From an uncultured Bacteroidota bacterium (GTDB lineage: Bacteria > Bacteroidota > Bacteroidia > Bacteroidales > P3), in contig CACYSB010000003.1 in assembly GCA_902777005.1 (NCBI GenBank), forward strand, positions 10,614 through 74,613: DNA of 64,000 nt, read 5' to 3'. The notes beneath the pieces were generated by a model. The model was not told the DNA's origin. It saw only the letters and a program-made list of their open reading frames with translations, and did no database searches. Positions 1,221 to 20,349 of this stretch are shown piece after piece (the stretch's first letter is position 1; each line of letters starts with the position of its first letter). A program made the translations under genes and the position numbers.

Positions 1221-1221
1221 C

Positions 1222-2895: not shown

Positions 2896-2903
2896 TACTT
2901 TTG
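2896..2903 (+). promoter_or_regulatory. -7 promoter box (TACTTTTG) for the xis-like gene
   Basis: The GTGTGTACTTTTGC context is nearly identical to the tRNA promoter context at 1091-1104. Confidence 0.45.
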
Positions 2904-2957
2904 CCGCCGACTTAACATCAATAGGCAACAATAATCAACAACCAAAAATAACACATT

Positions 2958-3188
2958 ATGGAAGACATTATGACCTTTTCGGCAGCGTGTGAGTTTCTAG
3001 GCATCACCTCAAGACAGATGTACGGTTACACTGGGCGAAAACTCATCCCTTACTACAAACCGACCGGACGGCACATCTATTTCCGCAAATCCGAGCTTGT
3101 AGAGTTCGTGACCGCCAACCGCATTGCCACCGCAGCCGAGGTGGAAGCACAAGCACAGCAACTGGCACGTAAACCCGCTGCGGTATAA
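2958..3188 (+). CDS. excisionase-type (MerR/HTH_17-like) DNA-binding protein
   Basis: A 76-aa protein with FSAACEFLGITSRQMYGYTGRKLIPYYKPTGRHIYFRKSELVEF, typical of Bacteroidales mobile-element Xis/HTH proteins. Lies next to the integrase. Confidence 0.65.
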   Translation: MEDIMTFSAACEFLGITSRQMYGYTGRKLIPYYKPTGRHIYFRKSELVEFVTANRIATAAEVEAQAQQLARKPAAV

Positions 3189-3230
3189 TCGTCCTGTGGC
3201 ACTCATTCCGCACATCATATCGGTAGACGG

Positions 3231-3273
3231 TACCCAAAAGGTGTGTACCCAAAGTACCCAAAAAGTGTGTACC
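3231..3273 (+). repeat. iteron-like direct repeats upstream of rep
   Basis: TACCCAAAAGGTGTGTACC (3231-3249) and TACCCAAAAAGTGTGTACC (3255-3273) have a 24-bp period and one mismatch. An extra GTACCCAAAG lies between them. Confidence 0.6.
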
Positions 3274-3347
3274 TTTCAGTCATACCATCACCTATCGTCA
3301 ATTATAATGTACACGCGCGAACGTATGCACCCAATAATAATGTCAAA

Positions 3348-4352
3348 ATGATAGACACGCTAAATATGATGATTGGGAGCAAATTGATGAGCGGAATGAG
3401 TCCGTTGTCGATTGATAAATATATCTCGATGGATAAAACGGGAATATATGTGCGAAAAGGGACTCCGTATATAGTTGGTCACATAAACAACTACCGAGTG
3501 TATGCCGACGACAATGGAATCCGCCTCTCCGGCAGCATCGCCAAGTTGAGCAAGGGAGAAAATGTGTCCACCCCAACACATAAGGACATCGACAATGGCC
3601 TCCAGTTACTGTCAGACACATTACATCTCGACGTTGGTATGGCCTCGGTTCTAAGAATCGACATTGCTTGTACCTTTGGAATGAGCAACCCCGTTGCCAA
3701 CTACTTAAACTTATTGACATCCATACCAGGATATGAACGCGCATCCGTTGGAGACAATTCCCTCTACTTTTATTCTCCAAATCGCAAACTGTACTTTTAC
3801 GACAAGCGAGCCGAATTGTATAGCCGTGGGGAACGTATTCCTCGCACATGGTTGAACATACCCAATCTGTTGCGTTATGAGATGAGATTCAACTGGACGG
3901 TGGGGAAGCAAATTGTTCAAGACACACTCAAAGTCTCCTGCCTCCGAGAGCGCCAGCCGATGGCGCGGCTGGCGAAGTTGTGGGCGCAGGGGTATCAGCA
4001 TATCGCGAAAAAGCAGGACAATCCATTCTTGAAGGTGATGACTCCTAAAGATGCCATAAATGTAATGCTTATTGACCTGTTGCGGAATGCGCCCGACAAT
4101 TATCTTGACAATGTGGATGAAATACTAAAGCAATCAGGCAATCTCGACAAAAAGCGACGATACCGGATGCGACAACAAATTGAGGGGAAGATGAGATTAT
4201 ACAATAATCCTTTAATAAACGAACTTGATGCTGAGATAGAATCGGCAAAAGCAAGTAGTTACCAGTCCAAACGCGCACGCGCGCGAGGAAAGAAACACCA
4301 AAACACAATATACAACCATGCCAAACAAGCCATACAAAAAACCGACCCTTGA
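3348..4352 (+). CDS. putative rolling-circle replication initiator (phage/plasmid gene II/X or Rep_trans-like)
   Basis: N-terminus MIDTLNMMIG resembles the MID-x-L starts of gene II/X Reps. LRIDIACTF and LYFYSPNRKLYFYDKRAELY are Rep_trans-like blocks. Start chosen at the internal ATG at 3348 because 3243-3347 overlaps the iterons. Confidence 0.45.
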   Translation: MIDTLNMMIGSKLMSGMSPLSIDKYISMDKTGIYVRKGTPYIVGHINNYRVYADDNGIRLSGSIAKLSKGENVSTPTHKDIDNGLQLLSDTLHLDVGMASVLRIDIACTFGMSNPVANYLNLLTSIPGYERASVGDNSLYFYSPNRKLYFYDKRAELYSRGERIPRTWLNIPNLLRYEMRFNWTVGKQIVQDTLKVSCLRERQPMARLAKLWAQGYQHIAKKQDNPFLKVMTPKDAINVMLIDLLRNAPDNYLDNVDEILKQSGNLDKKRRYRMRQQIEGKMRLYNNPLINELDAEIESAKASSYQSKRARARGKKHQNTIYNHAKQAIQKTDP

Positions 4353-4725
4353 GCAGTTGGAAACTGTTCTTAAAGTCACAGGTGGCATCCTTTCAAGGAC
4401 TGCCGAGATACTGGGATGCTGCCGCCTCACCCTCCGCCGTTGGATACGAAGTGACCCTGAATTTGCCGATGCTATTTACGATGCTCGGATGCGCTCCTTT
4501 GACAGTTGCCTTTCCTCGGCACAACTTTTAGCATTTGGCGTTCCAATCACGGAAAACGGTCAACTGAAGGGATGGAAGATTAGACCCGATGTACCAATGC
4601 TGATATTCCTCATGAAGAAGTTAGGCCGCGAAGAAGGTTTCGATCCCGACAATCCCATAAAACCAAAGAACCGTCAGCAAACAGATATGGAGCGATGGAT
4701 TGAGCAGGAGATGAACAGAAAGTAA
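4318..4725 (+). CDS. small HTH protein resembling a phage terminase small subunit
   Basis: TLEQLETVLKVTGGILSRTAEILGCCRLTLRRWIRSDPEFADAIYDAR followed by RPDVPMLIFLMKKLGRE. The pattern is recalled from TerS-type proteins and no HMM was run. Confidence 0.35.
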   Translation: MPNKPYKKPTLEQLETVLKVTGGILSRTAEILGCCRLTLRRWIRSDPEFADAIYDARMRSFDSCLSSAQLLAFGVPITENGQLKGWKIRPDVPMLIFLMKKLGREEGFDPDNPIKPKNRQQTDMERWIEQEMNRK

Positions 4726-4787
4726 TGGCTGAAATGTGATACAACACAACAGAACTGACTAAAAAATAGGTAGATAAACATCCCTAG

Positions 4788-4812
4788 AATTGTGGGTATA
4801 CAAACCACAATT
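4788..4812. terminator. hairpin between convergent genes
   Basis: AATTGTGG / CCACAATT 8-bp stem with a 9-nt loop. Confidence 0.4.
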
Positions 4813-4982
4813 AAATAAGCGGTAATGACAAAAAAATTTATTTCCATAGCCTTTCGGGGGAAACATTTGAACTATCACGCATGGCCGTCCCTCTTCACAT
4901 AAAAAAAGTTATTCGCTGGATTGTCATGATTTATAAGGTGTTCATTGTCTCCGGCATATGAAAAACCATTATCTCAATAGGG

Positions 4983-7900
4983 CTACATCAGGCTATTAAT
5001 CTCGTCGAGCATATTCTGGTAGCTGGTGACTTCGTGGTAGCGGACTTTATTGGTGGAGATGTTGTTGAAGAGCTTCTTGGCGCACTCAATCTTGGCCTTC
5101 TCGGCACCTTTCAGCTGCATGGAGTCCATGCTGCCTTTGGTCTCGGCAATGAAGAAGACATGCTTCACTCCAGCATTGTCGTTGAAGGCGATGGCCCAGT
5201 CAGGGGCATAGTTGCCCACAGGTGTCGGTATCTGGAACGACCGCGGCAGCTTGGCATAAACACACACTTCCTCGGCTTTGTCCAGCTCTTCGGCAAAGGT
5301 ACGCTCGCCTTGGCTGTCGGCAAACACATAGTCGAGAATGTGTTTCTTGGCCTCGTAGGCTTTGTCGATGGTCTGCCGGCTCTTCTCCTGAGTGAAGATG
5401 GCAGAGTCATATTGGTTTTCTGTGCGGTTGTAGCTGATATGTTCCACAATCATCGTGGCTTTCTGTTCACGGATGATATGGCTCACCTTGCGGATGAACT
5501 CTTCGGGGTTGTTCTTGAACATATACAGTTTCGACAGCTGTATCCCCTTGAGTATTCGTACTACCGTCCGACGGGTCAACGTGGCGGCTTTGGCGATGTC
5601 GCCCACCAGGTCGTAGGGTACGTTGCTGGTCGACACTTCACGCAGTTCCCTTGTTCGTGTACTCTGCTCTCCTGTAAAGTCCAATTCATCTTCGCCTTGT
5701 GTTCCTGTGGTGACCACATATTTCAGCTGTGTGACATTCAGGTCTCTGTCGATGGCACCAACGGACTTTTGAATCAACTCTTCGCTGTCATAGTGTACCG
5801 TATAGACATAGCGATGGTTGATTTCATTCCATAGGGCCTTGAACTCCTTCTTCTCGGCATTGTCGTTCAAGTGGTCGTTCACCACCTCGGCCTTGTCGTT
5901 GGCATCTTCCACCATATCCACCAAGGCGGTGGGGTCGAAGATGCTTTGTATCATCTTGTGTACCTGTTCCTCGATGGGTTGTAGTTTCTTGCTCATGGGG
6001 GCAAGTGTGCCATTCTCCAAGTCGGTATGGTAACCCTGCCGTATGTTGCCCTTCTCGTCGATATAGTCGTTGTCGAACAGATAGCTGACAATGCTGGCAG
6101 CTTCCTGTTCCGAGATGGTGTGCAACCCGCCATCCACCTTGAGGGTAATGTCCTTAAAGTAGTCCACAGTGGCCTGTGTCGGTCGCTCGCGAAGGGTTTC
6201 TTTGGTCTCTTTCTGTAGTGCGTCGACAAATGAGCTGTAGTTTTCGTTGGCGATGACGGTCAGTTTGTTGGTATCGTGTACGGCATCACCTAGACGTTCT
6301 TTGTCCATACGGTTGCCCTCTTTATCCACGCAGATACGTAGGCCGCGCCCTACCTCTTGCCGTTTGGTTGTGGCACTGTTGGCATGACGCAATGTGCATA
6401 TCTGGAACACATTGGGATTGTCCCAGCCTTCTCGCAGGGCGGAGTGGGAGAAGATAAAGCGTGTCGGTTCGTCGAAGCTCAACAGGCGCTCTTTGTTTTT
6501 CAATATCAGGTCGTAGGCCGAGATGTCGTCCGAGGTGTCTTTGCCCCGTTTCACTTCACTATTGACCGAGTGGCCTTTCTTGTCTATGGAGAAGTAGCCG
6601 TTGTGTACTTCGGTGGCTGGGAAACGCCGCAGATAATCCTGATAGTCGTCCTCAAACAGCGTCAAGTTCTCGTTCAGATAGCGGTTATATTCATCTTCGA
6701 ACATCTGCCACAGTGGTCCCTTCACCTCGTTCCCTTCACTGTCGTAACTTTTGTAGTTGGCAACCTCGTCGACAAAGAACAGCGACAGGGTCTTAATGCC
6801 CTGCTTGAACAGGGCTCGCTCTTTCTCGAAGTGCGACTTGACGGTCTCACGGATTTGTATCTGCTGTATGGCTTTCTCGCTCACGTCGCCCATCACCTCA
6901 CCCTGGTGAAGTGACTGACCATTCTGGAAGTGGATGGTGTTGGTGCGAGGATTGATTTCAGTTATGACGAACTCCTTGTAGGCTGGAAGCCCTGAAGCAT
7001 CGTAAAGTGAATCGTTCTGTCTAAACTTGCAGGTCTGACGGCGTGGACTTGCTGCGCCTTTCACTTCAATCTCTAGCCGCACCTCGGGGGCTTTGTTCTT
7101 CGAGAGGATGATGCTGTCGAAGTAGATATAGCTTTGGTTGCCCAGCAGGTTTTGTACGGTGATACCTTTCACCTGTATCTTCTTCACCAGGCGCTGCCTG
7201 TAGGCATCGTATGCATCGAGGGCATAGATGCAGTTGTGCGAGGTCTTGTGGGTGGCCGAGTAGTTGAGCACGAAGAGCGGCTTGAAGTTGCGCAAGGCTT
7301 TCTGGGTGGCTTCGCCTTCCATCTTCTGCGGCTCGTCCATTATGATGATGGGGCGGTTGGCGGCAATCACGTCGATAGGGCGACGGCTCTGAAAGTCGTC
7401 ACGTTTGGAGTAGATGATGCGCGCCTCTTTGTTCTTGGCATCTTCCTTGAACGAGGTATTGAAGGCCTGCACGTTGATGATCATCACGTTGATGCTGGCA
7501 TCGCTGCTGAACGAGTCTATCTGCGTGAGGTTGTTGCTGTTATAGATAAAATAGCGGGCTTTCTTGCCATACTGCTCCATGAAGTGTTCGTCGAGCATCG
7601 TGAAACTCTTATATACACCTTCACGGATAGCGATACTGGGCACCACCACGATGAATTTCGACCAACCATAACGCTTGTTCAATTCAAACATGGTCTTGAT
7701 ATAGACGTATGTCTTACCGGTACCGGTCTCCATCTCGATGTCGAGTGAGCAGGCTCCCAGCCCGACAGGCTGACTCAGCGTCGGCGACAAAGGTATGTCG
7801 CCAGTCACCTGTTGCTGGTGGATATTGTCTAATAGTTGCTGTCCCGTCAGCTCCACGTCGCTGTTGCGCCAGCCGACTTCCTCCTCATACACCTCGCCAC

Positions 7901-8054
7901 TGTCAACGTCAAAGGCCTTTACCTGCTTGCCTTTCCGACGGCCTAAGTCACGACGGTACTGTGCGTTGGCCTTCGACGGCTGCCCGGCAAACACATCCAC
8001 CGTGCTTTCCACCGCATCGGTCTGGTATTGCTGTATCTTGAATTTGAACTTCAT
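4983..8054 (-). CDS. res: Type III restriction endonuclease Res subunit (SF2 helicase plus PD-(D/E)xK nuclease)
   Basis: Starts MKFKFKIQQYQTDAV. Motif I is ETGTGKTYVY, motif II is IIMDEPQKM. The C-terminal nuclease is APDWAIAF...FFIAETKGS. Start taken at the second Met (8054), 8 nt after the upstream stop. Confidence 0.85.
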   Translation of the reverse strand: MKFKFKIQQYQTDAVESTVDVFAGQPSKANAQYRRDLGRRKGKQVKAFDVDSGEVYEEEVGWRNSDVELTGQQLLDNIHQQQVTGDIPLSPTLSQPVGLGACSLDIEMETGTGKTYVYIKTMFELNKRYGWSKFIVVVPSIAIREGVYKSFTMLDEHFMEQYGKKARYFIYNSNNLTQIDSFSSDASINVMIINVQAFNTSFKEDAKNKEARIIYSKRDDFQSRRPIDVIAANRPIIIMDEPQKMEGEATQKALRNFKPLFVLNYSATHKTSHNCIYALDAYDAYRQRLVKKIQVKGITVQNLLGNQSYIYFDSIILSKNKAPEVRLEIEVKGAASPRRQTCKFRQNDSLYDASGLPAYKEFVITEINPRTNTIHFQNGQSLHQGEVMGDVSEKAIQQIQIRETVKSHFEKERALFKQGIKTLSLFFVDEVANYKSYDSEGNEVKGPLWQMFEDEYNRYLNENLTLFEDDYQDYLRRFPATEVHNGYFSIDKKGHSVNSEVKRGKDTSDDISAYDLILKNKERLLSFDEPTRFIFSHSALREGWDNPNVFQICTLRHANSATTKRQEVGRGLRICVDKEGNRMDKERLGDAVHDTNKLTVIANENYSSFVDALQKETKETLRERPTQATVDYFKDITLKVDGGLHTISEQEAASIVSYLFDNDYIDEKGNIRQGYHTDLENGTLAPMSKKLQPIEEQVHKMIQSIFDPTALVDMVEDANDKAEVVNDHLNDNAEKKEFKALWNEINHRYVYTVHYDSEELIQKSVGAIDRDLNVTQLKYVVTTGTQGEDELDFTGEQSTRTRELREVSTSNVPYDLVGDIAKAATLTRRTVVRILKGIQLSKLYMFKNNPEEFIRKVSHIIREQKATMIVEHISYNRTENQYDSAIFTQEKSRQTIDKAYEAKKHILDYVFADSQGERTFAEELDKAEEVCVYAKLPRSFQIPTPVGNYAPDWAIAFNDNAGVKHVFFIAETKGSMDSMQLKGAEKAKIECAKKLFNNISTNKVRYHEVTSYQNMLDEINSLM

Positions 8055-8062
8055 CACATACA

Positions 8063-9862
8063 CTATTCTGATATAATCACCCAATGACCACCTCTTTTGG
8101 CAGGCCCCTCTCTCTTTATCTGATTATTAAACTTAAGTTTGTTTATATGATTTTGTATGGCGGTAGTTGATATACCTATTCTTGAAGAGAGTTCTTTTTT
8201 GGTTATATAGGGGTTTTCTTGTATGAGTGACAGTATCGTTGATATTGTTAATTCAGAATCGTTTGGCCCATTAGACAACCCATTAGGCAACCCATTAGAC
8301 AACCCATTAGACAACCCATTAGACAACCCATTAGACAACCCATTAGACAACTCTTGGTGATTGAACTCAGTATTAATCTTGTATGTCGTCCCCCTTCCTT
8401 TGCCAGTAGGAATTAACAACTCTATACCCGTCAAGTATTTTAGTGTCTTTGCCACTTCCAGGGAGTTCTTTTCCATAAGTGTCTGAAGTCGCTGATTGGT
8501 CACCTCTTTCTCCACATAAGCCACCGATAGAGCCGATAGCGCATCACTGTCTAACTTGTTATATCCGTCGCCTAAAAAGTTATGCAAAAAAACCTCAACC
8601 TCTTTAGGGTACATGGAAATCATCCATAGTTTCAATTGGACTTCTTTCAGTTCGGTCACCTCATCCAAGTCGGGTTTTCGCCATTTCTCCGTTTTACAGG
8701 CATTGAGAATGGTAGGGAAACCTGAACCGAGGTTCTCACCATAACCAATCATCCGTAGCATATTCTGTATCCGAGGGTTCCTCGCCTTCGAACTTCCGCC
8801 TTCATAAATTTGAGCAACCGGAAGTTTCAAAGTTCCAGGGTTTCTAAAGCAGAAACATCCATCGTGTTTTTCGATTCTCAATATGCCACCAGATATGAAG
8901 AAATCAGCGTGAATGATACTGTTGGTAAAGGACTCGCGGATGGCTTTGTGTGCAGGTGTGTCATCGTCTCTTTGCATCCCTTCCAATCGGAATGGGCGTT
9001 TTAGGTCACTGGATAGCTTTACCAATACACGGCGGAAGAAATTATACAGGTTGTTTTCCCATGTTCCATCATAAGTCAACCGATCGCTATAACGCATATC
9101 ACCTTGCAAATCGGTCATATCTATATAGTCCATCCTGAAGTTTGAGAAACGCTCCCTTACAGATAGGCCTTTGCCAAACATCAGAAGTCCAGCGAGTGTC
9201 AGTCCCTCTTTTCCGGTGGCACGGTCTATTGTATAACCTCCGAGTTGTTTTAGAAATTCTTTGTCGTCCAGCTGATTGTACACATGCCCGATATTCCTGT
9301 TTTCAAACTCGTTCCTGTAACTCTTCAAGGTAGGCATGTCGATGTCATCCATCGTATAGTAGTCTATAAGATTCCCGTCGTTCCCGTCTTCATTGGCATC
9401 ACGTATCATGGCCTTGACTTCGCTCTCATCGCAATGATAGTCGCCCTCATGATTGCGCTTGAAAGTCCCCTTATACACATTGCCGTTGATATAGACAGGC
9501 TTATTACGATATATGGCTTGGGGTATATGGGCAACAAGCAACACAGTTGTATCATCATACTCTACAACTTGCACATCTTCATCTTTCAACAAATTGGAAC
9601 TTACCTTCTCGCTATTAATGGTATTCCAGAAGTCCTTCCGTTGGCGTTCCGCATGGTTGATGCCATAAATAGTGAAACGTTCGTCGAAAGTTTCAGCATT
9701 CAGATTCTCTTCGATACCTAGTATAATATAGCCCCCATTGGTGTTGGCAAATGCGGAATATGTTTCCCAGATAGACTTAGGGATACTATTTTCGGACCTT
9801 TTGCACTCCAACGTAATGCGTTCTCCGTAATTTAATAGTTCGTCTATAAATGTCTTGTCCAT
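8063..9862 (-). CDS. AlbA_2 (Schlafen-like divergent AAA) / HATPase_c_4 / C-terminal wHTH protein
   Basis: ECKRSENSIPKSIWETYSAFANTNGGYIILGIEE is AlbA_2-type. FTNSIIHADF is HATPase_c_4-type. The C-terminal wHTH is ITKKELSSRIGISTTAIQNHINKL. Confidence 0.7.
   Translation of the reverse strand: MDKTFIDELLNYGERITLECKRSENSIPKSIWETYSAFANTNGGYIILGIEENLNAETFDERFTIYGINHAERQRKDFWNTINSEKVSSNLLKDEDVQVVEYDDTTVLLVAHIPQAIYRNKPVYINGNVYKGTFKRNHEGDYHCDESEVKAMIRDANEDGNDGNLIDYYTMDDIDMPTLKSYRNEFENRNIGHVYNQLDDKEFLKQLGGYTIDRATGKEGLTLAGLLMFGKGLSVRERFSNFRMDYIDMTDLQGDMRYSDRLTYDGTWENNLYNFFRRVLVKLSSDLKRPFRLEGMQRDDDTPAHKAIRESFTNSIIHADFFISGGILRIEKHDGCFCFRNPGTLKLPVAQIYEGGSSKARNPRIQNMLRMIGYGENLGSGFPTILNACKTEKWRKPDLDEVTELKEVQLKLWMISMYPKEVEVFLHNFLGDGYNKLDSDALSALSVAYVEKEVTNQRLQTLMEKNSLEVAKTLKYLTGIELLIPTGKGRGTTYKINTEFNHQELSNGLSNGLSNGLSNGLSNGLPNGLSNGPNDSELTISTILSLIQENPYITKKELSSRIGISTTAIQNHINKLKFNNQIKREGPAKRGGHWVIISE
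8267..8350 (-). repeat. 7 tandem copies of a 12-bp unit (CCCATTAGACAA on +) encoding (LSNG)x7 linker
   Basis: Read directly. One copy has G for A (8279-8290). The array is in frame and lies between the HATPase_c_4 and wHTH domains. Confidence 0.95.
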
Positions 9863-9864
9863 AA

Positions 9865-10002
9865 TTATATGTTTTTCTCCTTACGACTTGCCTTACAATA
9901 GTCACCTGCACTCCTTGTCATATTATATTCGCCCGACTCCCTGTCTTGCAGCAACTGCTCCAAGACAGGTTGCAAGTCTTCGTATTCGTAGATTCGCTTC
10001 AT
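9865..10002 (-). CDS. possible 45-aa ORF (MKRIYEYEDLQPVLEQLLQDRESGEYNMTRSAGDYCKASRKEKNI)
   Basis: Own translation, below the track threshold. Its stop is 5 nt before the AlbA_2 ATG. It contains a 9-bp inverted repeat (9940-9948 / 9961-9969). Coding status is uncertain. Confidence 0.2.
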   Translation of the reverse strand: MKRIYEYEDLQPVLEQLLQDRESGEYNMTRSAGDYCKASRKEKNI

Positions 10003-10088
10003 AACCAAATTATTCTTTCTCAACTTGTTTTTCTATACAAACAACAGTCTCGGTCTTGTATTGTTATATTTTGAATTTATCCCATGCT

Positions 10089-10124
10089 TTATTTAGACAA
10101 CCTATTAGACGACCCATTAACAAA
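10089..10124 (-). repeat. degenerate copies of the same 12-mer (scar)
   Basis: TTATTTAGACAA, CCTATTAGACGA and CCCATTAACAAA compared with CCCATTAGACAA. Lies in the intergenic gap. Confidence 0.5.
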
Positions 10125-10173
10125 CGCCCGATTATTAAGACTAATTATTCTCATTTTCAAACCTTTAAATGCA

Positions 10174-11126
10174 TCAAAACATTGTTTCAACCAAGGGAGT
10201 TGTGACTTCTCCATTTCCAATAAAATGTAGAGTCATGGTAATTAGTGATAAACATCTATTATAAAAATAGTCATAGTATCTATCATCTGTAATGTCAACC
10301 TTGTCAGTTTCATGATGCCTTATTCTAAATTTATTGCCTATATCTGTAAGAGCCTTATATTCCGTGTTAAATAGTACCTGAAATTCAGCACTTCCATTAG
10401 ATATTGCAGTGATTAACATTTCCGAAGAACGCTTTTTGTCTATTCCATCCGCAACATAGATAGTTTTGATTCTCTCTAAAGCATCCCATATTTTTCAGTA
10501 GCTATCTTATGGTTTGCAGGGTATGGGCTTTTGTAAAAGGCTATAGATTCTTCGACTAATTCCCTCAGACCTGGTTCTTCAAAGCCAGATACAGTTTCCT
10601 GCGCCTCATTAACGATTGTGTCCATCTCAGTAATGCGTTCAATCTGCTTGTTCTCAGTCATCGTATAGGCTAAACCTGCCATTTGGAACACTTCATTTAA
10701 TCCGTTCCTAAAATCCAGAAACGCACTATTATCATCACTAAAAGACAAGTGATAATGTTGGAAATACTCATGATACTTCCCCTCTCTAACGGTCTTTACA
10801 TATCTTGCAATATACTCTATAAAATCAAGCAAAGCGTACTGCTGAGCCTCATTCGGTTCCACATATGGTACAATCTGAATTCCATCATATCCATCCGAAT
10901 AAAATAAATCGGGAATGCGAACGTGCACATATTGAAAAAACTTTTTCAAATCAACGCCACAAACAACCATATTATAGTCTGAACAATATTCAGGGAACAC
11001 ACTCGCAAGATTATTATAGTATCTACTACAGAAATCAACAATAATTTGATATTTGTCACGTGTAATTGTTGATGTAGAAATCACATTACTACGTAGATAA
11101 TGGCGTTCTGTGTACAATTCTTTCAT
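10174..11126 (-). pseudogene. frameshifted gene for a two-domain protein with a HEPN-like (AbiJ-type IRH motif) C-terminus
   Basis: ORFs 10476..11126 and 10174..10419 are contiguous. The downstream frame is open from 10494. One extra A in the A5 tract (T5 at 10491-10495 on +) fuses them: ...ATEK IWDALERIKTIYVADG...GNKFRIRHHETD... Confidence 0.6.
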
Positions 11127-11129
11127 AAC

Positions 11130-13127
11130 TTAGATGATTCTTCTGATTGTATCTTTACTGTATTCTTCCCAGATTTGTTCGAAGTTATCGGCGACTTGAT
11201 CGGTGGCGAGGCTGGCGTCGCGGAGGACGAAATAGTAGGGGTGCTGTTTGGCGATGGCTTTGATGGCGGTCTCGTTGACATCTTTGTCGAAGCAGGCCAT
11301 GAGGTAGCCTTCGGCAACATTCCAGACGGCCTTGCCTGCAATCTCTTGTTTCTCAATCTTGGCCGATAGTTCGATGCCCAGTTCTATCATCGCCTGGAAG
11401 AGCAGGTCTTCGTCCGTGCGGTCAGATTTGATATTGTCAGCAAATGCTTCCAGCTGTTTCCCGTCGAACTCCGCAGGGGTGTAGTAGACATCCTGCATAT
11501 TCGAGCTGTCGAGTTTCAGCACACGGAAACCCACATCCAGTTTCTTCTGCTCTCCGCTGAACAGGTCGCCCTGCTTGGCTTTCTGCTCTTCGAGAATCTT
11601 CTTGCCAGCACGACGGATACGCTCCTTGCCGAGCTCACATATATTCAAAGGGCGTTTTTTTATGCTTAAGAAATCAATTGCATTTTGTATTATTTCCTTT
11701 TGACTTTTACTCTTTGAACTCTCAAGTGCTTTTGTCAAATCCTCTTGTATTTGAACCAAAATAAATTTGACTTTATTCCTGTTTAAATCTATATTGTATT
11801 GCAATGCTGCTTCAGCAGAAGTTGCTGACCCAGAATAGAAATCAAGGATAATAAAGTCATTGTCATCATTATCATTGAATCCCATTAAATATTTCACCAA
11901 ACTTACCGGCTTCGGGAAATTAAATACTTTCTTATCAAATAGTTTAAGTTGATATTCTCCTGCGTTTTCATTAGTTCCAACCCCCACCTTGCTATTGATA
12001 AGATTTGTTGGTACCTCTGGTGCATACTCTGTTTTATCGTAGGAGGGGCTAAATTTCATTGTGGGAATATTGATAATGGTACCATTTTTTATCTCATTAT
12101 CAAGGTAAGACTGTTGCCATTTAAACTTTGCCCTCAAGGAAAAATCTTGAACAAATAAACCTTTCTTTACTTCAACATCATTAAGCAATTCTACATCGTA
12201 AGCATCTGTACCGTACATCCCAGCTGGTATTATCCCATCTGGAATATTTGTATGAACAACATTTGCCTTAAATTTTAATATGCCAACGGGATTAGGTTGA
12301 TTCAGCAAACCATTTGAACTTGACGAAGATTTTCTTATTCCTCTGAATTTCTTATCGTCTTTGTTCTTTTGGTAACACAATACATATTCTATGATTTGAC
12401 GACTCTTTATTGATAGGTTTTCAGGTGTTTCCGTTTTGGCCCAGTTATAGATATCAATAAATGATTTGGAACCAAAGACTTCATCACAAACTTTTTTTAG
12501 ATTTGAGACCTCGTTATCGTCTATAGAAATAAAGATAACGCCACCATCACAGAGTAAGTCCTTTGCTACTTTTAAACGAGGATAGATATTGTTCAACCAT
12601 TCGGTATGAAACCGTCCTTCAGTTTCTGTAATTTCATACATTCGATTGCCAGCATTGTCGTACTGCCCGCTATTGCAAACATACACTTCTTTATCTATCG
12701 AGAAGTCGTCTGGATAAATAAAATCCTTTCCAGTATTGTAAGGCGGGTCGATATAAATCATCTTCACCTTGCCCAGGTAGTTCTCGCGCAGCAGTTTCAG
12801 CACTTGCAAGTTGTCGCCCTCGATATAGAGGTTCTGCGTGTTGTCGAAGTCCACACTCTCCTCCCTACAGGGACGCAGGGTGTCGGTGGTGGGTGCATTG
12901 GCCAAGCGGATGGCGTTGCGTTTGTCGGGCCAAGTGAACTGATAGCGTTCTTCCGGACCTTCCACGATGTCCTTCGACAGTTCTTGCCGCAGCTGGTCGA
13001 AGTCGATAGCCACCTCCGGCCATCCGTTCTCGTCCAGCCGCTCCGTCAAACAGTTCGGGAACAACTCCCCAATACGTTTTATATTTTCATCCACCACATT
13101 GGCGGTCTGCATCTTCAGTTTCTCCAT
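11130..13127 (-). CDS. mod: Type III restriction-modification methyltransferase Mod subunit (N6-adenine, beta class)
   Basis: MIYIDPPYNTGKDF is motif IV. IILDFYSGSATSAEA is motif I. Motif IV precedes motif I. Confidence 0.9.
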   Translation of the reverse strand: MEKLKMQTANVVDENIKRIGELFPNCLTERLDENGWPEVAIDFDQLRQELSKDIVEGPEERYQFTWPDKRNAIRLANAPTTDTLRPCREESVDFDNTQNLYIEGDNLQVLKLLRENYLGKVKMIYIDPPYNTGKDFIYPDDFSIDKEVYVCNSGQYDNAGNRMYEITETEGRFHTEWLNNIYPRLKVAKDLLCDGGVIFISIDDNEVSNLKKVCDEVFGSKSFIDIYNWAKTETPENLSIKSRQIIEYVLCYQKNKDDKKFRGIRKSSSSSNGLLNQPNPVGILKFKANVVHTNIPDGIIPAGMYGTDAYDVELLNDVEVKKGLFVQDFSLRAKFKWQQSYLDNEIKNGTIINIPTMKFSPSYDKTEYAPEVPTNLINSKVGVGTNENAGEYQLKLFDKKVFNFPKPVSLVKYLMGFNDNDDNDFIILDFYSGSATSAEAALQYNIDLNRNKVKFILVQIQEDLTKALESSKSKSQKEIIQNAIDFLSIKKRPLNICELGKERIRRAGKKILEEQKAKQGDLFSGEQKKLDVGFRVLKLDSSNMQDVYYTPAEFDGKQLEAFADNIKSDRTDEDLLFQAMIELGIELSAKIEKQEIAGKAVWNVAEGYLMACFDKDVNETAIKAIAKQHPYYFVLRDASLATDQVADNFEQIWEEYSKDTIRRII

Positions 13128-13135
13128 AAGACAAC

Positions 13136-13414
13136 CTATAATAAATTTGCAACCAATTCAATCCAGAACTTACTATCTTCAAAGATTGACGGGTCTTTTA
13201 ACTTGGGATTCTCAAACAAATATGCCTTTGCTGTAGGAGTTAACCTGTAGTCGAGGTATCCTCCAAATTCACATTTAATTCCTTTGCCTAATCCGATATA
13301 TTCCAAATGCTCCAATTCTGCAAAGTCACTTGAACTGTTGTCCAACTTATAGTTCTTGGATGCTAATAAAACAATAATTTCTTTTTCTCTTTTTGTCAGA
13401 TGAACTTTGTCCAT
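13136..13414 (-). CDS. hypothetical 92-aa protein
   Basis: ATG start, tightly packed between the DUF4391 gene and mod. No recognisable motif. Confidence 0.5.
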   Translation of the reverse strand: MDKVHLTKREKEIIVLLASKNYKLDNSSSDFAELEHLEYIGLGKGIKCEFGGYLDYRLTPTAKAYLFENPKLKDPSIFEDSKFWIELVANLL

Positions 13415-13415
13415 A

Positions 13416-14016
13416 TTATATTTGTGCTTTTAATTTTACAAGTTCTTGGTGCAATTCATATTTCTTGTGCGTTTGTTTCTCCAACCGGCATTTCTTTTCG
13501 AGGACTTCAATCTGTCGGAGCAGCTTCTCTTTCTGTTCACGGTTGATTATCTGCTGTTCGATGGTTTCTTCCGAAGAGGCATCAAGGCTTCCAATGCTTG
13601 CCACAATGTTGTTCCATACATCATCGAGATTCAAACCTTGAAGATGAATAGCAGTTTCTTCCGTAGGCATCCAAGCCGACTGTTGCAGCCGGGTGTGGAA
13701 GATACAAAGTTGCGTTTTGTCTTCATGCTGCAAGGCAAATACGATATTCTGGGGTATCAACTTATGGAGCAAGAGAATGTTCTTTGGGTCATACTCCTTG
13801 CGCTTCAACACGACCTGCAAGACATATATGCCTTTTATTTCGTTTCCATCCGTCAGCGCTGGTACAGTCGCCGGAGAGATGCGAGCCACAAGAACCATCC
13901 TGCTAATGTCAGCATCGAACCGTTCACGCTCCGACGCCTTGAGATTGAATTTCTCAAAGACGGCCTTTTTCGATAGCGGCTGACTGATGGCGGTGGCAAC
14001 GGGTAGTCCAAACATA
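13416..14016 (-). CDS. DUF4391-like protein
   Basis: MFGLPVATAISQPLSKKAVFEKFNLKASERERFDADISRM... is recalled as the DUF4391 type that accompanies helicase/MTase/Res cassettes. Start at ATG 14016, since the track start is TTG. Confidence 0.5.
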
Positions 14017-14020
14017 GGTA

Positions 14021-17000
14021 TCACTTGATTACAAGGAAACAAATAAGTTCGAAGTCGTCCAAGCCCGAAATATGCTCTTTGAACAACTCACCCTGCACAC
14101 CATCAAGGAAACTGTCAATGTCCGATTTCTCCTTGACGTTGATAATTGAGTTAATGGCTTTGCTGAGCAAGTCAGAATACTTATCCATGCGTAGGCCGTC
14201 GCGGGTCTCTTTGTTGAAGGTGCTGCAGAGTTTTATGTCTGGCTGATCCATGGGCTTGCAGAGCAGTCGCATCTTGTCGAGGAGGTCCTTGGGGTGCAGG
14301 TGATCAACCATCACCTCGCCATCATCTTGGATGTAGACCATATAGAACGGGTGCAGCTGGTTCTTGTGGTCGATATTGACACCGGCGGTTCTGTTTTTCA
14401 GCACGAAGACTGTGCCCGCAGGCGCCTGCTCGTTGCCACGCACCACAGCATGAAGACCAAAGGGGGTATGTTCAATATCGTGGTTGCCCTGCATATATTC
14501 CAAGAGATCCAACCGGAACTCATTCAGGCCAAGGTCCATGATGCTGACACCTGTATTCATCTCTTCAAGGTCGACGACATCCTCTTTCAGACGTTCCAAC
14601 TGCCGACGGCGGTATTCGAGGTCGTCCTTCTCCTCGGGCGAGAGGAGATTGTCGTCGCCGGTGGCAGTCATCACGGTCACTTTCATGCGGGCTTCGACAC
14701 GACCTTTGAGGTTGATATACTCGTCGAGCGTCATATCGGGCCAATAGTTGACCAGCTGTATTTTTGTATTCTTGGAGCCTATACGGTCGATACGGCCGAA
14801 ACGCTGGATGATACGCACGGGATTCCAATGGATGTCGTAGTTGATAAGGAAGTCGCAGTCCTGCAGATTCTGACCCTCGCTGATGCAGTCGGTGGCGATT
14901 AGCACGTCAATCTCCTCGTGCAGATGAGGATAGACAGCGTCACGCTCCTTGGACACAGGAGAAAACAAGGTAAGCACCTTGTTGAAGTCAAGCCTTTCGC
15001 GTAGTTTCATAGTACTTCTGGCCTCCACGTCGCCGGTGACAAGAGCCACATTCAAGCCATACTTGGATTTGATGGCATCAGCCAGGTTTTTATACAGATA
15101 TTCTGCCGTGTCGGAGAAGGCCGTAAATACAAGTACCTTCTTGTTGCCATTGTTTATGGGAGTGACGAACTTAGACTGGAGATCCGCCACAAGCTGTTGC
15201 AACTTACTGTCATGCTCGGGGGTGATAGGCTCAAGTTGGGAGAGAAGGTTGTGGATGATATTGAGGTCAGCCTTAATTTCCTCCTGCCACGAGAGATAAT
15301 CCATATCCTCCAGCCGAATACGGTTCTTCTTCTTACCGATGGTGAAGTCCTGCTCGTCCTCGTCGGCATCCACACCCTCGTAGTCATCGACAGACACCAG
15401 CACGTCGCCCTGTCTGAATCTGGCTATTGTATCAAGGGTTTCCTGCATATAGTCGCGGATGCGGCCCAGGGTGAGTCGGAAGGAGTTGACAGAAGACTCC
15501 AATCGTTTCAGCAACTGCATATTCATCAGTCGCTGGATGCCGCGTTCGCGCTCCTCGATACTCAAGCGGTGGCCCGATGAGCCTTCTTCCTCCGTGTATT
15601 TCCACAGCTGGCTGGGTTGGATGAAGGCAGAAGGAGCATAGATAGCAAGATGAAGCAACTGCAATTGTTCGAATATCTCGTTGTAGTTGATGGCTGTATC
15701 GAGGTCGGTCAGATGAGGTTGACGTGAGATAGGTTTCAGTCGTTCGGGGAAAGTGCCGATGTCAGAAGTGTCGTAATATTGTTGGATGTGCTTGCGGCTG
15801 CGGGCGATGGTGACGGCATCGAGCAGACGGAAGAAATCGAAGTCAAGCATACGGAGCAGTCGCTCGGTGGTGCGTTCCTGCGGAGGCAGATTAGCCCACA
15901 TGTTATAAGCCCCTTGGGCTTGACGGAAGATGTCGTCGATGCCTTTATTGGTAGGCAACAACTGGTCGAAGGCTTTGGATTCCCCTTCGTAGGCCAGCTG
16001 CAGTTGGTTCTTGAGGTCGTTGAAGCGGTTGTTTACGGGTGTGGCCGAGAGCATCAGCACCTTTGTCTTCACACCAGAGCGGATGACCTTGTTCATCAAT
16101 CGTAGGTAGCGGTTGTCACGTGGATTCTCGCCATCCTCGTCGGTCGACACCTTGCCGCCGTTGCGGAAGTTGTGACTCTCGTCGATTACTACCAGGTCGT
16201 AGTTGCCCCAGTTGACACGCTCCAAGTCAAGGTCGTTGCTCTGCCCATGGTCACGGCTGAGGTCAGTATGATATAGCACATCGTAGTTCAGACGGTCTTT
16301 GGCCAAGGGGTTGTTGGTGTAATTCTGGCGGTAGGTGTTCCAGTTCTCATATAGTTTCTTAGGACATAGCACCAAAATGGTGCGGTTGCGGCTCTCGTAG
16401 TATTTGATGACAGAAAGGGCCGTAAACGTCTTACCGAGCCCCACGGAGTCGGCAAGGATGCAACCGTTGTACTTCTCCAGCTTGTTGATGATGGCCAAGG
16501 CGGCATCACGCTGGAAGTTGTAGAGTTTGTTCCAGATAATGGAGTTCTTGAATCCAGTAGCCTCATTGGGCAGCTCGTCCTCGCTGATGTCTTCTAGAAA
16601 CTCGTTGAAGATATTGTATAGAGCTACAAAGTAAAGGAACTCTGGAGCGTTCTCTTTATAGGCGTTTCCGATGCTATCGATGACTTCGTCAGTCACTACC
16701 TGCATACGGGATGAATCATTCCAAAGCTGGTTGAAGAGGTCGATATAAGCCTTCGAGAATGGAGCTTCGGACTTTTGAATCATAGTATAGGCATGATTCC
16801 CTTTCTCGCAGCCGAGGTCGACGGTTGTGAATCCGTCAAGCGGGGAATAACTATTGTCATCGAGCGTAATAAACCCCATCATCTGTTCGTTGGTACGATT
16901 GGATTTAAAACAGACCTTCTGACGAATCCACTCGGCACACTCGCGGGCAATAGCCTTTTGGGTTAGTTCATTACGGAGCTTCACCTCAAACTCAGAGCCA

Positions 17001-17320
17001 TATAAGGTACGTTCCCTGTCCAGACGAGGAATATAGAATTCCCGCTGTTGTTTGGGTGTTTTTTCGGTGGTGAAGGTTGGCGAGGTAAAGATGAAGCGCA
17101 GCTCCTTGATATCCTTTAGCGCCTCTTTCAACTCCTGATAGGCATAGATGGAGAAACAGGAGGCTGCTATCGAAAGACGACTATCCGGCTTGATTTGTTG
17201 CATCAAGTCGTCACGTAGGGTCTTGTTTATGTTGTTAATCAGCTCCATCGTGCGAAATGCGCCTTGAGGTTTGTGCTCCAAAGCCTCCAACGGAGCGGTT
17301 TTACCCAATAAGAAAGGCAT
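14021..17320 (-). CDS. SNF2-family helicase with N-terminal PLD-like (degenerate) domain
   Basis: Motif I is LADSVGLGKTFTAL, motif II LVVIDESHNFRN, motif III LMLSATPVNN, motif VI QRFGRIDRIGS. The N-terminus SIAASCFSIYAYQELKEALKDIKELRFIF is typical of this helicase class. An alternative start is at 17248. Confidence 0.85.
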   Translation of the reverse strand: MPFLLGKTAPLEALEHKPQGAFRTMELINNINKTLRDDLMQQIKPDSRLSIAASCFSIYAYQELKEALKDIKELRFIFTSPTFTTEKTPKQQREFYIPRLDRERTLYGSEFEVKLRNELTQKAIARECAEWIRQKVCFKSNRTNEQMMGFITLDDNSYSPLDGFTTVDLGCEKGNHAYTMIQKSEAPFSKAYIDLFNQLWNDSSRMQVVTDEVIDSIGNAYKENAPEFLYFVALYNIFNEFLEDISEDELPNEATGFKNSIIWNKLYNFQRDAALAIINKLEKYNGCILADSVGLGKTFTALSVIKYYESRNRTILVLCPKKLYENWNTYRQNYTNNPLAKDRLNYDVLYHTDLSRDHGQSNDLDLERVNWGNYDLVVIDESHNFRNGGKVSTDEDGENPRDNRYLRLMNKVIRSGVKTKVLMLSATPVNNRFNDLKNQLQLAYEGESKAFDQLLPTNKGIDDIFRQAQGAYNMWANLPPQERTTERLLRMLDFDFFRLLDAVTIARSRKHIQQYYDTSDIGTFPERLKPISRQPHLTDLDTAINYNEIFEQLQLLHLAIYAPSAFIQPSQLWKYTEEEGSSGHRLSIEERERGIQRLMNMQLLKRLESSVNSFRLTLGRIRDYMQETLDTIARFRQGDVLVSVDDYEGVDADEDEQDFTIGKKKNRIRLEDMDYLSWQEEIKADLNIIHNLLSQLEPITPEHDSKLQQLVADLQSKFVTPINNGNKKVLVFTAFSDTAEYLYKNLADAIKSKYGLNVALVTGDVEARSTMKLRERLDFNKVLTLFSPVSKERDAVYPHLHEEIDVLIATDCISEGQNLQDCDFLINYDIHWNPVRIIQRFGRIDRIGSKNTKIQLVNYWPDMTLDEYINLKGRVEARMKVTVMTATGDDNLLSPEEKDDLEYRRRQLERLKEDVVDLEEMNTGVSIMDLGLNEFRLDLLEYMQGNHDIEHTPFGLHAVVRGNEQAPAGTVFVLKNRTAGVNIDHKNQLHPFYMVYIQDDGEVMVDHLHPKDLLDKMRLLCKPMDQPDIKLCSTFNKETRDGLRMDKYSDLLSKAINSIINVKEKSDIDSFLDGVQGELFKEHISGLDDFELICFLVIK

Positions 17321-17565
17321 GAGACTTATGTGCTCATGTCCGTCTACTTGTGGGTTTCGGCTACCTCTGAAGGAACGGAATAAAAACCATCAGGCTTTTT
17401 CCATGGAACAAATTTCACGCCTGAAGGTATGCTGATGAGAATAGCATACACAACAAGCGAAAGCAAAATGCTCCGTCCTCCTTCATGAAATTTGCCGAAT
17501 TTACAAGTAGGGACAGTTATTAGCAATGCTTTTCTTGCAAAGCTTACAACGCGCGTAAGCAGTTG

Positions 17566-17573
17566 CAAAAGTA
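17566..17573 (-). promoter_or_regulatory. -7 promoter box (TACTTTTG) for the helicase/RM operon
   Basis: Reverse complement of caaaagta. It implies a leader of about 240 nt before the helicase ATG. Confidence 0.4.
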
Positions 17574-17704
17574 CGAAGATTTTCTGGAATAGCCAAATTT
17601 ATTTATTCGCGTGTGCGTGATAATGCATAGTATTTATACGCGAACAGGTGTTTTTTCAAAAGAAGAAACCACACCAAAAAACTCACAGAAAACCATTAGT
17701 AACA

Positions 17705-18375
17705 TTACACATTTTGACATACAACATGTGATGCTGGCAGATGTCGATTGTCGTATCCGTCTACATTATAGAATAAGGGTGTTGCCTTGTTTTTGCCGTA
17801 GATGGGCTTGTTGAACATATGGGCGTTTTGTAGGACATACTTGATGCCGTCGACACCGCAGCCCCAAGGCGAGGCGACATCGCCATAAGTAACTTCTTTT
17901 ATATCCACATAGCCGATGATGGCACCAGTTGGCCATTGCTCATAAGGTGGTAGTATGCCTTTGGCTATATATCCATTCACCACGTCCAGCAACTGGCCAT
18001 CGAGCACTTCATCCAGTCGTTTGGCATCGCGGGTCTTGCTGGCGGCGATAAGGAACCGCTTGCAAGGTGGCACCAGTTTATCACGGCACTCTATATCTTT
18101 TATACCTGCAGCAATCAGCGTTGCCCACGGCTGACGTATGGCGAGACATTTCATCTGGCGGCTGCGGTTTGGTGCTTTATTCTTTTTTGCAATACGATGG
18201 GTGATACCAGACGCACGTTTTGTATTACGTTCCGCTGCGGTATGGTTCAGTTCTCTATACAGCAGATTATTCACGTCAGCCTTTGTGAGTCCGAGGGAGA
18301 GCAGATGCATAGTCTTCGCCTCAAACCCCATGTCGGCAAGAGCGATGTGCTGCACCTGTTCTCTGAAACTGTCCA
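17705..18375 (-). CDS. ASCH (PUA-like) domain protein
   Basis: MKCLAIRQPWATLIAAGIKDIECRD is an ASCH signature. Start at ATG 18375, 22 nt downstream of a minus-strand TATCTTTG box (18397-18404). The track start is TTG. Confidence 0.7.
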
Positions 18376-18528
18376 TAGCATTAGCTGTATCTCTTTGCAA
18401 AGATACAACTTTTTAATAAAACTGAGAGTAAAAAAGTGATGTTTTTTGATAAAACCGAGACGAATAAATGCATAAATAATCAGCGAGTGATTATTTATGC
18501 TTATATTTGACAAAAAATGTTATAACTC

Positions 18529-19803: not shown

Positions 19804-19873
19804 TTAGCATCATATTTTCACGCTGCAAAAGTACAAAATAAATTTCATATAGATAGAATTTTATAAAAATTTG

Positions 19874-20313: not shown

Positions 20314-20349
20314 GGCACATAACAATATGATTATCAGTATACATACGAT

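Follow-up and report, generated by a model that had tools for sequence, protein, structure and literature searches.

The operon described here raises a question of organisation: why are the mod and res genes of a Type III restriction-modification (RM) system, which normally lie next to each other, separated by two unrelated genes, and why are they preceded by a helicase gene, a DUF4391 gene and a short open reading frame (ORF)? The operon is located in a 64,000-nt stretch of contig CACYSB010000003.1 from an uncultured Bacteroidota bacterium (positions 10,614 to 74,613; assembly GCA_902777005.1), which is called the window in the following. According to the ORF listing, it is a string of co-oriented minus-strand genes at positions 4983-17320, in the order SNF2 helicase, DUF4391, orf92, mod, a HEPN-like gene, an AlbA_2 (Schlafen-like) gene and res. 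The original prediction offered two alternatives, a Type III RM system with embedded effectors or a larger multi-component system. Based on the comparison with related loci, we consider it rather likely that the locus is a four-gene, Type III-derived RM system which doubles as a cassette platform for other defence genes.

The combination of helicase, DUF4391, methyltransferase and Res had been expected to recur, and this was confirmed in Bacteroidales loci and in Acinetobacter plasmids. A scan of species-representative genomes with tblastn mapping of the components yielded 46 loci, all of them in Bacteroidales; a further set comprised 80 metagenome loci, and in total approximately 130 related loci were compared (designated by L numbers, the window being L001). 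In every complete locus of both sets the order is helicase, DUF4391, slot A, mod, slot B, res, where the slots are the positions at which additional genes can be found. In tblastn searches of these loci, identity to the window proteins is 80-94% (about 85%) for the helicase, approximately 70-79% for DUF4391 and approximately 78% for Res. When plasmids were searched by tblastn with DUF4391, eight Acinetobacter plasmids were found, and the two loci examined contain the four genes in identical order. In plasmid pYFY27.1 the four core genes are separated by spacers of 2-16 nt and are free of cargo. In pMsp65 of Acinetobacter sp. NEB149 (L053), an IS1-family element interrupts mod (locus 12302-13003), and a C-terminal mod fragment resumes beyond it. 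The Acinetobacter proteins share 53% (helicase), 48% (Res), 41% (Mod) and 21% (DUF4391) identity with those of the window. No relative was found in a scan of the viral_contigs collection. Judged by gene content and order, helicase, DUF4391, Mod and Res form a strictly co-occurring, order-conserved unit across two phyla.

This co-occurrence bears on the idea that two independent systems with hitch-hikers are present, namely a self-contained module of SNF2 helicase and DUF4391, an ordinary Type III pair of Mod and Res, and some defence-island neighbours. The two halves are indeed rarely contiguous, since slot A is nearly always filled. Their GC content speaks for this idea as well, being approximately 0.51 in helicase and res and 0.36-0.43 in the middle part of the operon, and so does the presence of other defence-like genes (ASCH and AAA_14/DUF4143) in the same island. 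However, order and co-occurrence are kept from Bacteroidales to Acinetobacter, where DUF4391 is only 21% identical, and complete DUF4391 loci always contain the Mod/Res pair, the only exceptions being the decayed or truncated loci L013, L033 and L051. In addition, helicase and Res are conserved in parallel, and the homology between loci forms a single block that begins at the helicase ATG and ends with res. We therefore regard two independent systems as improbable.

The first core gene encodes an SNF2-like helicase/translocase of 1075 aa (14021..17248, minus strand; Pfam SNF2-rel_dom, ResIII and Helicase_C). Its ORF extends to an ATG at 17320 (14021-17320), but the true start is most likely the ATG at 17248, because all homologues align from residue ~25 and the homology at the DNA level begins 6 nt upstream. 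The helicase motifs GLGKT, DESH, SATP and QRFGR are intact. The protein matches the PADLOC model PDLC01075 (‘HKD+Snf2’) over its full length (E 7e-126), while its N-terminal ~235 aa and C-terminal ~200 aa gave no Pfam match up to E 10. An HKD nuclease, as suggested by the name of the PADLOC model, is not claimed, since neither an HxK(x)4D motif nor a PLD Pfam match was found.

The third core gene (11130..13127, minus strand) encodes a beta-class N6-adenine methyltransferase of the Type III Mod family (Pfam N6_N4_Mtase; PADLOC MTase_III, E 8e-195). The closest solved structure is EcoP15I Mod (4zcf_A, E 5e-45), and as in this enzyme, motif IV (DPPY, residue 127) is N-terminal to the S-adenosylmethionine-binding motif (DFYSGSAT, near residue 450). 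Among loci with helicase and Res proteins that are approximately 80-88% identical, Mod is only ~54% identical, with a variable central target-recognition part. The fourth core gene, res (4983..8054, minus strand), encodes a protein of 1023 aa (Pfam ResIII and RE_endonuc; PADLOC REase_III, E 7e-293), the closest solved structure being EcoP15I Res (4zcf_C, E 1e-71). It combines a helicase-like ATPase of superfamily 2 (SF2), with the motifs GTGKT, DEPQ, SAT and QEVGR, with a C-terminal nuclease of the PD-(D/E)xK type (PD951...ETK973). Since it reaches 381 bits against the NCBIfam equivalog PRK15483 with a cut-off of 564, it belongs to a distinct subfamily. Mod and Res are thus genuine homologues of the two EcoP15I subunits, and their catalytic motifs are intact.

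The homology between loci stops at position 5005, near the 3’ terminus of res. A discrete mobile end was considered here and rejected, as Res C-termini merely vary over the last ~7 residues. In several relatives res is split into two ORFs or truncated (L055/56, L058/59, L009, L013 and L051), some related loci consist of fragments only, and the decayed relatives include L033. Decay of res seems to be common while cargo persists.

The second core gene (13416..14015, minus strand) encodes the DUF4391 protein of 199 aa (PF14335, E 2e-34). The family is large, with 1236 representative clusters at 50% identity (E 0.001 or better). A first AlphaFold2 model, based on 20 sequences of at least 75% identity, was discarded because of a predicted local distance difference test (pLDDT) score of 58. 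With an alignment of 116 sequences representing the 50% level, a model with a pLDDT of 95.2 and a predicted template modelling score (pTM) of 0.83 was obtained; a homology search seeded with the Acinetobacter DUF4391 yielded only matches of at least 93% identity and thus added no depth to the alignment. In the model, an alpha/beta domain (residues ~9-145) is followed by a long C-terminal helical hairpin (152-198). Foldseek revealed nothing significant in PDB (best E 0.09, TM-score at most 0.28) or BFVD (best E 0.05), with query TM-scores of at most 0.29 overall, and a profile search of the PDB sequences gave no match. The columns conserved in at least 90% of the 116 diverse members are mostly hydrophobic or structural, together with an N-terminal M-x-G-L-P-x-x-T, and no obvious catalytic constellation is seen among them. 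Because it consists of an alpha/beta domain plus helical hairpin and lacks conserved catalytic residues, we propose that DUF4391 could be a non-enzymatic adaptor. As anticipated in the original prediction, no functional study of the gene combination was found in the literature, and neither was functional work on DUF4391, PF14335 or IPR025503; the mentions of ‘DUF4391’ were irrelevant, one of them being a typographical error for DUF7941.

How does this system relate to those already described? In common with the Type III enzymes EcoP15I and StyLTI, its Mod is a beta-class N6-adenine methyltransferase carrying DPPY, its Res joins an SF2 ATPase to a C-terminal PD-(D/E)xK nuclease, and mod is located upstream of res. 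Type III enzymes are characterised by hemimethylation of an asymmetric site and by ATP-dependent cleavage for which two unmodified sites in inverse orientation are needed. The Type III pair is defined as an adjacent two-gene unit with no other obligatory partner. Here, in contrast, an SNF2 helicase and DUF4391 precede this clade of mod and res in every complete locus, and mod and res are often parted by up to 4.7 kb of cargo. Class 1 DISARM (DrmD with DrmMI) and Hma (HmaA with a methylase and an ATPase) are defence operons in which an SNF2-family helicase is likewise genetically linked to a DNA methyltransferase. However, DrmA, DrmB, DrmC, HmaB and HmaC are absent from the locus, as is an HmaA with a NOV_C nuclease. 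The match of the helicase to the DrmD and HmaA models is confined to the C-terminal lobe of the helicase domain (~590-865; HmaA 605-851), and it reaches 155 bits against DrmD with a cut-off of 610. The locus thus belongs to neither DISARM nor Hma.

The remaining genes occupy the two slots. Counts of slot occupancy and gene adjacency cover Bacteroidales loci, which are mostly metagenome-assembled genomes (MAGs) from rumen and gut. Slot A, between DUF4391 and mod, is occupied by one or more ORFs in 36 of 41 genome loci; of 57 metagenome loci, 56 have a gap of more than 60 nt at this place. In slot B, between mod and res, co-oriented cargo of 625-4660 nt is present in 19 of 35 species-level genome loci, while in the other 16 the two genes are adjacent (2-50 nt); among metagenome loci, 18 of 25 are occupied. 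Approximately 80 inserted ORFs fall into 39 clusters, nearly all co-oriented with the operon. They include a complete Kiwa system (KwaA and KwaB), RhuM/PDC-S05, TIR/PDC-S66, AbiGi, AbiJ_NTD3 with Abi_C, PIN_8, the YhcG/DUF1016 PD-(D/E)xK nuclease, Fic with Bro-N, AAA_21 and HEC-01A-like ATPases, AAA_14/DUF4143, DUF4238, TPR, pentapeptide and ORF6N proteins; about half of the 39 clusters had no Pfam or PADLOC match. The largest cluster is AlbA_2, found in approximately 10 of ~40 loci and mostly directly before res. Some empty slot B spacers contain short iterated motifs of the types ttgataattgacaattga and ggttataggttaaaggttattggtta (L022, L034, L036 and L038 in the mod-res spacer; also L027 and L039), which might be recombination or regulatory sites.

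These counts make it very unlikely that all seven genes form one obligate system with the AbiJ-like, AlbA_2 and orf92 products as integral subunits. Such a system would fit the co-orientation and close spacing of the genes, the recurrence of an AbiJ_NTD4 plus AlbA_2 pair between mod and res in L055-57, and the fact that in many loci the AlbA_2 gene overlaps the start of res (ATGA). But slot B is empty in almost half of the species-level loci, pYFY27.1 harbours the core without cargo, and the slots accept 39 unrelated clusters including the autonomous Kiwa. Furthermore, AlbA_2 is also found in slot A (L015, L017 and L055), and in the window the AbiJ-like gene carries a frameshift while the rest of the operon is intact. 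Of the two alternatives mentioned at the beginning, each was thus partly correct: a multi-component system does exist, but with four genes instead of a fixed seven, and there are embedded genes, in that those for orf92, the AbiJ-like protein and AlbA_2 are optional cargo, but their host is this four-gene system. Likewise, the neighbourhood comparison which had been proposed as a check revealed that AbiJ-like and AlbA_2 genes recur between mod and res elsewhere, but that neither is constant, the AbiJ-like gene being limited to a few locus types.

Evidence for cargo exchange comes from pairs of closely related loci. Between the window and L002, identity is 99.9% over the stretch that starts 6 nt before the helicase ATG and ends at the stop codon of mod; then slot B is unrelated, and identity (95.3%) resumes exactly at the res ATG. 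Exactly the DUF4391 protein of the window was found in contigs arranged like the window and also in others, in which a TPR gene and another type of AlbA_2 gene come after mod. A further comparison, with L055, revealed 95.5% identity that extends through mod, the AbiJ-like gene and the intergenic region into the AlbA_2 gene of L055, of which it covers the first ~74 nt. Thereafter homology is broken, to resume at the res ATG. The AlbA_2 gene of the window is divergent, its product being only 37% identical to the common type found at the same place in other loci; it has therefore replaced the body of an older one.

In agreement with this, blastn against related loci revealed scars in the 311-nt non-coding spacer between the AbiJ-like and AlbA_2 genes (9863..10173, minus strand). 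These are the first ~24 codons of a common-type AlbA_2 gene (10003-9929, matching the consensus N-terminus of the AlbA_2 cluster), a fragment resembling the 5’ end of res (10078-10044), and a degenerate fragment of (SNGL) repeats (10125-10089, repeat family D1). The same AlbA_2 5’ remnant is present in L009 and L023, ahead of unrelated cargo. The spacer contains remains of earlier cassettes. Thus, locus comparison and sequence scars document that unrelated, mostly autonomous defence genes are exchanged between backbones of 90-99.9% identity. The exchange probably proceeds by homologous recombination, with the flanks in helicase and res serving as the conserved sequences that recombine.

The junction between cargo and res is stereotyped. 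In 18 of 23 distinct loci with occupied slot B, the last cargo gene overlaps the res start in an ATGA, independently of the cargo family (AlbA_2, RhuM, YhcG, TPR or unassigned). Where mod directly precedes res there is no such overlap, with spacers of 4-47 nt in 15 of 16 cases and -1 nt in L026. We read the stereotyped junction as reflecting selection for translational coupling of res to the upstream gene; ending in this overlap, the cargo would be co-expressed with res. Within the 3’ ends of unrelated cargo genes, 8-10 nt upstream of res, the Shine-Dalgarno-like sequence AAGGAG(G) was found in L002, L007, L011, L014-16, L020, L023, L024, L032 and L042, giving the encoded proteins alike C-terminal tails of the form ‘...KE-x3-4’; it is absent where mod directly precedes res. 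Bacteroidota rarely use Shine-Dalgarno sequences, and AAGGAG at this position is hence unexpected.

What does the copy in the window carry? Slot A is filled by orf92 (13136..13414, minus strand; 92 aa), which belongs to no family: no match was found in Pfam (even at E 10), PADLOC or NCBIfam. Homologues at the same position are restricted to L002-4, L010 and L049, and orf92 occurs in four locus types only; other loci have unrelated genes there. Therefore orf92 is cargo and not core.

The first gene of slot B (10174..11126, minus strand) was predicted to be HEPN-like. The family was correctly recognised, as it encodes AbiJ_NTD4 and an AbiJ-type HEPN domain and corresponds to the PADLOC candidate PDC-S32, but the gene is not intact. 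It reads as two ORFs, 10476-11126 (216 aa) and 10174-10419 (81 aa), which cover positions 2-211 and 235-299 of the 301 positions of the PDC-S32 profile. Members of this family are single polypeptides of ~300 aa; here both parts are present with a frameshift between them, which parts the sensor-like N-terminal domain from the HEPN part. In proteins of the AbiJ family, AbiJ-NTD domains occur together with an HEPN RNase at the C-terminus (Anantharaman et al. 2013, PMC3710099). DNA alignment traced the frameshift to a 1-nt deletion in an A-run (10491-10495), which has five A here and six in the intact allele P0121 (317 aa, 97% identical). A sequencing error was considered and ruled out, because the A5 allele is present in the independent metagenome assemblies L001 and L005. 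Read from its sequence, the gene is a pseudogene of the AbiJ/PDC-S32 family, and phase variation may occur at the A5/A6 run. Intact alleles are located 3 nt after mod in L055-57 and L058-59, in the former together with AlbA_2. More distant PDC-S32 homologues are found in Type I RM systems, where they are flanked by hsdS and hsdR, and therefore the family habitually resides inside RM operons of different types.

The second gene of slot B (8063..9862, minus strand) encodes a protein of 599 aa with the Pfam domains SLFN_AlbA_2 (14-144), HATPase_c_4 (339-402) and HTH_24 (543-577), which we refer to as Schlafen-GHKL-winged helix-turn-helix (wHTH). PADLOC assigned its N-terminal part to SLFN-pAgo. 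It harbours the triad E14-x4-E19-x-K21 followed by R22 (K21 and R22 were read from the window sequence). All AlbA_2 cargo genes compared encode E14 and nearly all encode E19, and N314 and the G-boxes of the GHKL domain are invariant. The unit of Schlafen and GHKL domains, mostly with a C-terminal HTH, was named ‘Schlatpase’ and is exchanged between pAgo and RM contexts (bioRxiv 10.64898/2026.05.29.728809). With AlbA_2 and its E-(D/E)-K triad, a GHKL ATPase and a C-terminal HTH, the window gene is by architecture a typical ‘Schlatpase’ member in a Type III-like operon, with predicted RNase activity. In CbCash the counterpart of E14/E19/K21, the triad E17/D22/K24, cleaves tRNA loops, and Schlafen-ATPase-DNA-binding proteins are tightly associated with RM and BREX (PMC13462974). 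The triad and the RM association are common to the window protein, Cash and SLFN-pAgo/‘Schlatpase’ proteins, and a GHKL ATPase directly downstream plus a C-terminal HTH is the majority architecture of the latter (PMC13462974; bioRxiv 10.64898/2026.05.29.728809). In contrast to Cash and SLFN-pAgo, the window protein has no Csx15/CARF-like or Argonaute sensor, contains an (SNGL)n linker, and is encoded within a Type III-like system, between mod and res. This linker, between the GHKL and wHTH parts, is encoded by approximately 8 copies of the 12-nt tandem repeat CCCATTAGACAA (8255-8363). A comparable linker made of 4-residue repeats is encoded by the common-type AlbA_2 genes, and the copy number of (SNGL)n could vary by slippage.

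An RNase gene within an RM operon calls to mind PrrC, the paradigm of HEPN genes embedded in RM operons (PMC3710099). It was therefore considered that binding to the Mod/Res complex silences the Schlafen protein, and in the past also silenced the AbiJ/HEPN protein, until a phage anti-restriction factor disables the RM system or restriction generates DNA ends, whereupon it fires as an RNase; the cargo would then depend functionally on the host RM system. Apart from the PrrC precedent (PMC3710099), such a guard would be in line with the frequent ATGA overlap of cargo and res, often with AAGGAG upstream, and with the PDC-S32 homologues in RM operons of two types, after mod of DUF4391 systems and between hsdS and hsdR. 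Moreover, of the Schlafens associated with defence, more than half have a link to RM or another nuclease system, and it was speculated that DNA-cleavage products are sensed as the cue (PMC13462974). On the other hand, the same slot takes many unrelated families which are autonomous elsewhere (Kiwa, TIR, RhuM), and AlbA_2 paralogues of 37% identity swap beside res genes of 95% identity, which argues against a finely co-evolved interface. The guard is a proposal drawn from the genetic embedding, and the masking by Mod/Res is putative; we consider it rather doubtful, although less so than two independent systems. In comparison to PrrC and RloC, an NTPase-regulated RNase gene within an RM operon, plausibly a second line of defence as far as can be read from the genes, is the shared feature. 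Unlike there, the RNase domains are Schlafen and a dead AbiJ HEPN instead of a PrrC-type HEPN with ABC ATPase, and the host is Type III-like, not Type Ic.

In the explanation that we favour, a four-gene RM system serving as a cassette platform, Mod and Res would most likely form a complex that methylates host DNA at an asymmetric site and, after communicating along the DNA at the expense of ATP, cuts invading DNA which is unmodified. The SNF2 translocase and DUF4391 are obligatory genetic partners of this Mod/Res lineage; DUF4391 would possibly tether the SNF2 motor to the RM complex, and the motor would assist in loading onto target DNA, in scanning it or in clearing it of protein. The junctions between DUF4391 and mod and between mod and res are recombination-permissive slots for defence genes, in this copy containing orf92 in slot A and, in slot B, what is probably a dead AbiJ/HEPN RNase gene next to the Schlafen-GHKL-wHTH gene with its intact triad. 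By analogy with characterised prokaryotic Schlafens, the latter may be a second-line effector of the abortive-infection type, which cleaves tRNA or other RNA when restriction fails.

Several points weigh against this explanation. The activity of every component is deduced from sequence; the roles of SNF2 and DUF4391 are a guess, the latter being without structural relative; and the Schlafen protein may act alone or sense the RM complex. Helicase-DUF4391 and Mod-Res could be two modules merely travelling together, given that slot A is almost never empty, and the slot frequencies may reflect shared ancestry, as the Bacteroidales loci represent one order and mostly rumen and gut MAGs. Restriction may often be lost with the cargo kept, considering the split or truncated Res in L009, L013, L051, L055 and L058. 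Finally, the AlbA_2-res junction of the window is itself an exception, with an 8-nt gap, no ATGA overlap and no AAGGAG.

Going further, it is tempting to speculate that SNF2-DUF4391-Mod-Res is a distinct, unnamed restriction class (‘Type III-plus’) in which the SNF2 motor and an adaptor with a novel fold are obligatory, and which is a dedicated cassette platform with cargo RNases coupled to res and gated by the RM complex. This is a possibility that we hold tentatively. If true, ‘Type III-plus’ would be a general, exchangeable PrrC-like guard layer for restriction of the Type III type.

The nesting of diverse defence genes in multi-gene defence systems was described before and is the source of the PADLOC PDC families (Payne et al. 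2024, bioRxiv 10.1101/2024.01.29.577857), and Hma, with its SNF2 helicase and methylase, is an insertion hotspot (PMC11232893). As in those cases, co-oriented defence genes lie inside a methylase-containing multi-gene system, they vary between homologous loci, and they are rich in known or candidate defence families. Much of the cargo belongs to PADLOC PDC and HEC families (PDC-S32, PDC-S05, PDC-S66, HEC-01A-like), and with Hma the host system also shares an SNF2-type helicase and a methylase, but no further component. The host described here differs in being a Type III-like RM system with DUF4391 and two defined slots, in the stereotyped ATGA junction between cargo and res, and in the scars documenting cassette replacement; Type III-type systems were outside the analysis of Payne et al. 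2024 (bioRxiv 10.1101/2024.01.29.577857). Since the RM association of Schlafen-ATPases (PMC13462974) and the embedding as such (Payne et al. 2024) were already reported, the embedded effectors are the less novel part. The novelty lies in the host system, as yet unnamed and unstudied.

The operon was predicted to be very tightly spaced, which applies to most junctions. Gaps of 1 nt (DUF4391 stop to orf92 ATG), 3 nt (mod stop to AbiJ-like ATG) and 8 nt (AlbA_2 stop to the res ATG at 8054) were confirmed; the gap from the helicase stop to the DUF4391 ATG is 5 nt instead of 4 nt. However, with the 311-nt spacer the string is not uniformly tight, and the two cargo genes place mod and res 3,075 nt apart. 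Of the proposed translational coupling of each inserted gene to one RM partner, the spacing stands, but one of the two genes is frameshifted. Both the minus-strand string and the box TACTTTTG at 17566..17573 (minus strand) agree with the ORF listing and a motif search. The box is of the Bacteroidota -7 type, lies ~318-325 nt upstream of the helicase ATG at 17248, and is a putative promoter; between them extends an untranslated leader of ~318 nt (17249-17565). The motif TANNTTTG occurs 49 times in the window with 27 occurrences expected. TAnnTTTG boxes also occur in related loci, at positions that vary from -41 to -389, and no conservation of the upstream region is seen from one locus to the next. 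Since the conserved block starts only 6 nt upstream of the helicase ATG, each genomic context seemingly supplies its own upstream region. A terminator scan (8 sites, 12.4 expected from shuffled sequence) is in line with a single transcript, to which it lends slight support. A sigma-70 promoter scan was set aside as not meaningful for Bacteroidota.

The operon is carried by an integrative island of ~19.2 kb (1202..20368), recognised by att-like repeats, an integrase gene and GC content. A perfect 19-nt direct repeat, TCCCTCCCGGGGTACAAAA, is present at 1202-1220 and 20350-20368, the first copy at the 3’ end of a tRNA-Leu gene (1133-1216). The island contains genes for a tyrosine integrase (1550-2722), an HTH_17 protein (2958-3188) and a Phage_CRI-like Rep (3243-4352), and its GC content is 0.36-0.52, compared to 0.57-0.64 beyond 21.5 kb. 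Repeats of 29 nt near both ends (1347-1375, 1481-1509 and 20284-20312) may be arm-type sites of the integrase. Just upstream of the operon, on the minus strand, are an ASCH-domain gene (17705-18400) and an AAA_14/DUF4143 ATPase gene (18529-19803). They are not conserved beside the system in other loci, a DUF4143 ATPase is slot A cargo in L022, and both genes could represent additional defence cargo of the island. Close to the island end, the region upstream of the DUF4143 gene contains three copies of a 23-nt tandem repeat as well as 11-nt repeats of the TTGTTTGTCG type (19867-19948 and 19997-20137). A T9SS sorting domain was detected in the scan of the window proteins, and the nearest relatives are rumen and gut Bacteroidales MAGs, both of which mark the host as a member of the Bacteroidota.

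The identification of this system is important for several reasons. The SNF2-DUF4391-Mod-Res set is widespread, with 1236 DUF4391 clusters in the family and loci in Bacteroidales and Acinetobacter plasmids, and is thus a target for characterisation; it raises the concrete question why a Type III-like enzyme needs an SNF2 motor. Further, it extends ‘guilt-by-embedding’ to RM systems of the Type III type, and thereby enlarges the range of loci in which defence genes can be sought. Backbones that are nearly identical but differ in cargo record, together with the scars, how cassettes are swapped, and they offer natural isogenic comparisons. Last, the locus is a compact test case for the trigger of RM-linked Schlafen proteins, a question raised in recent papers.

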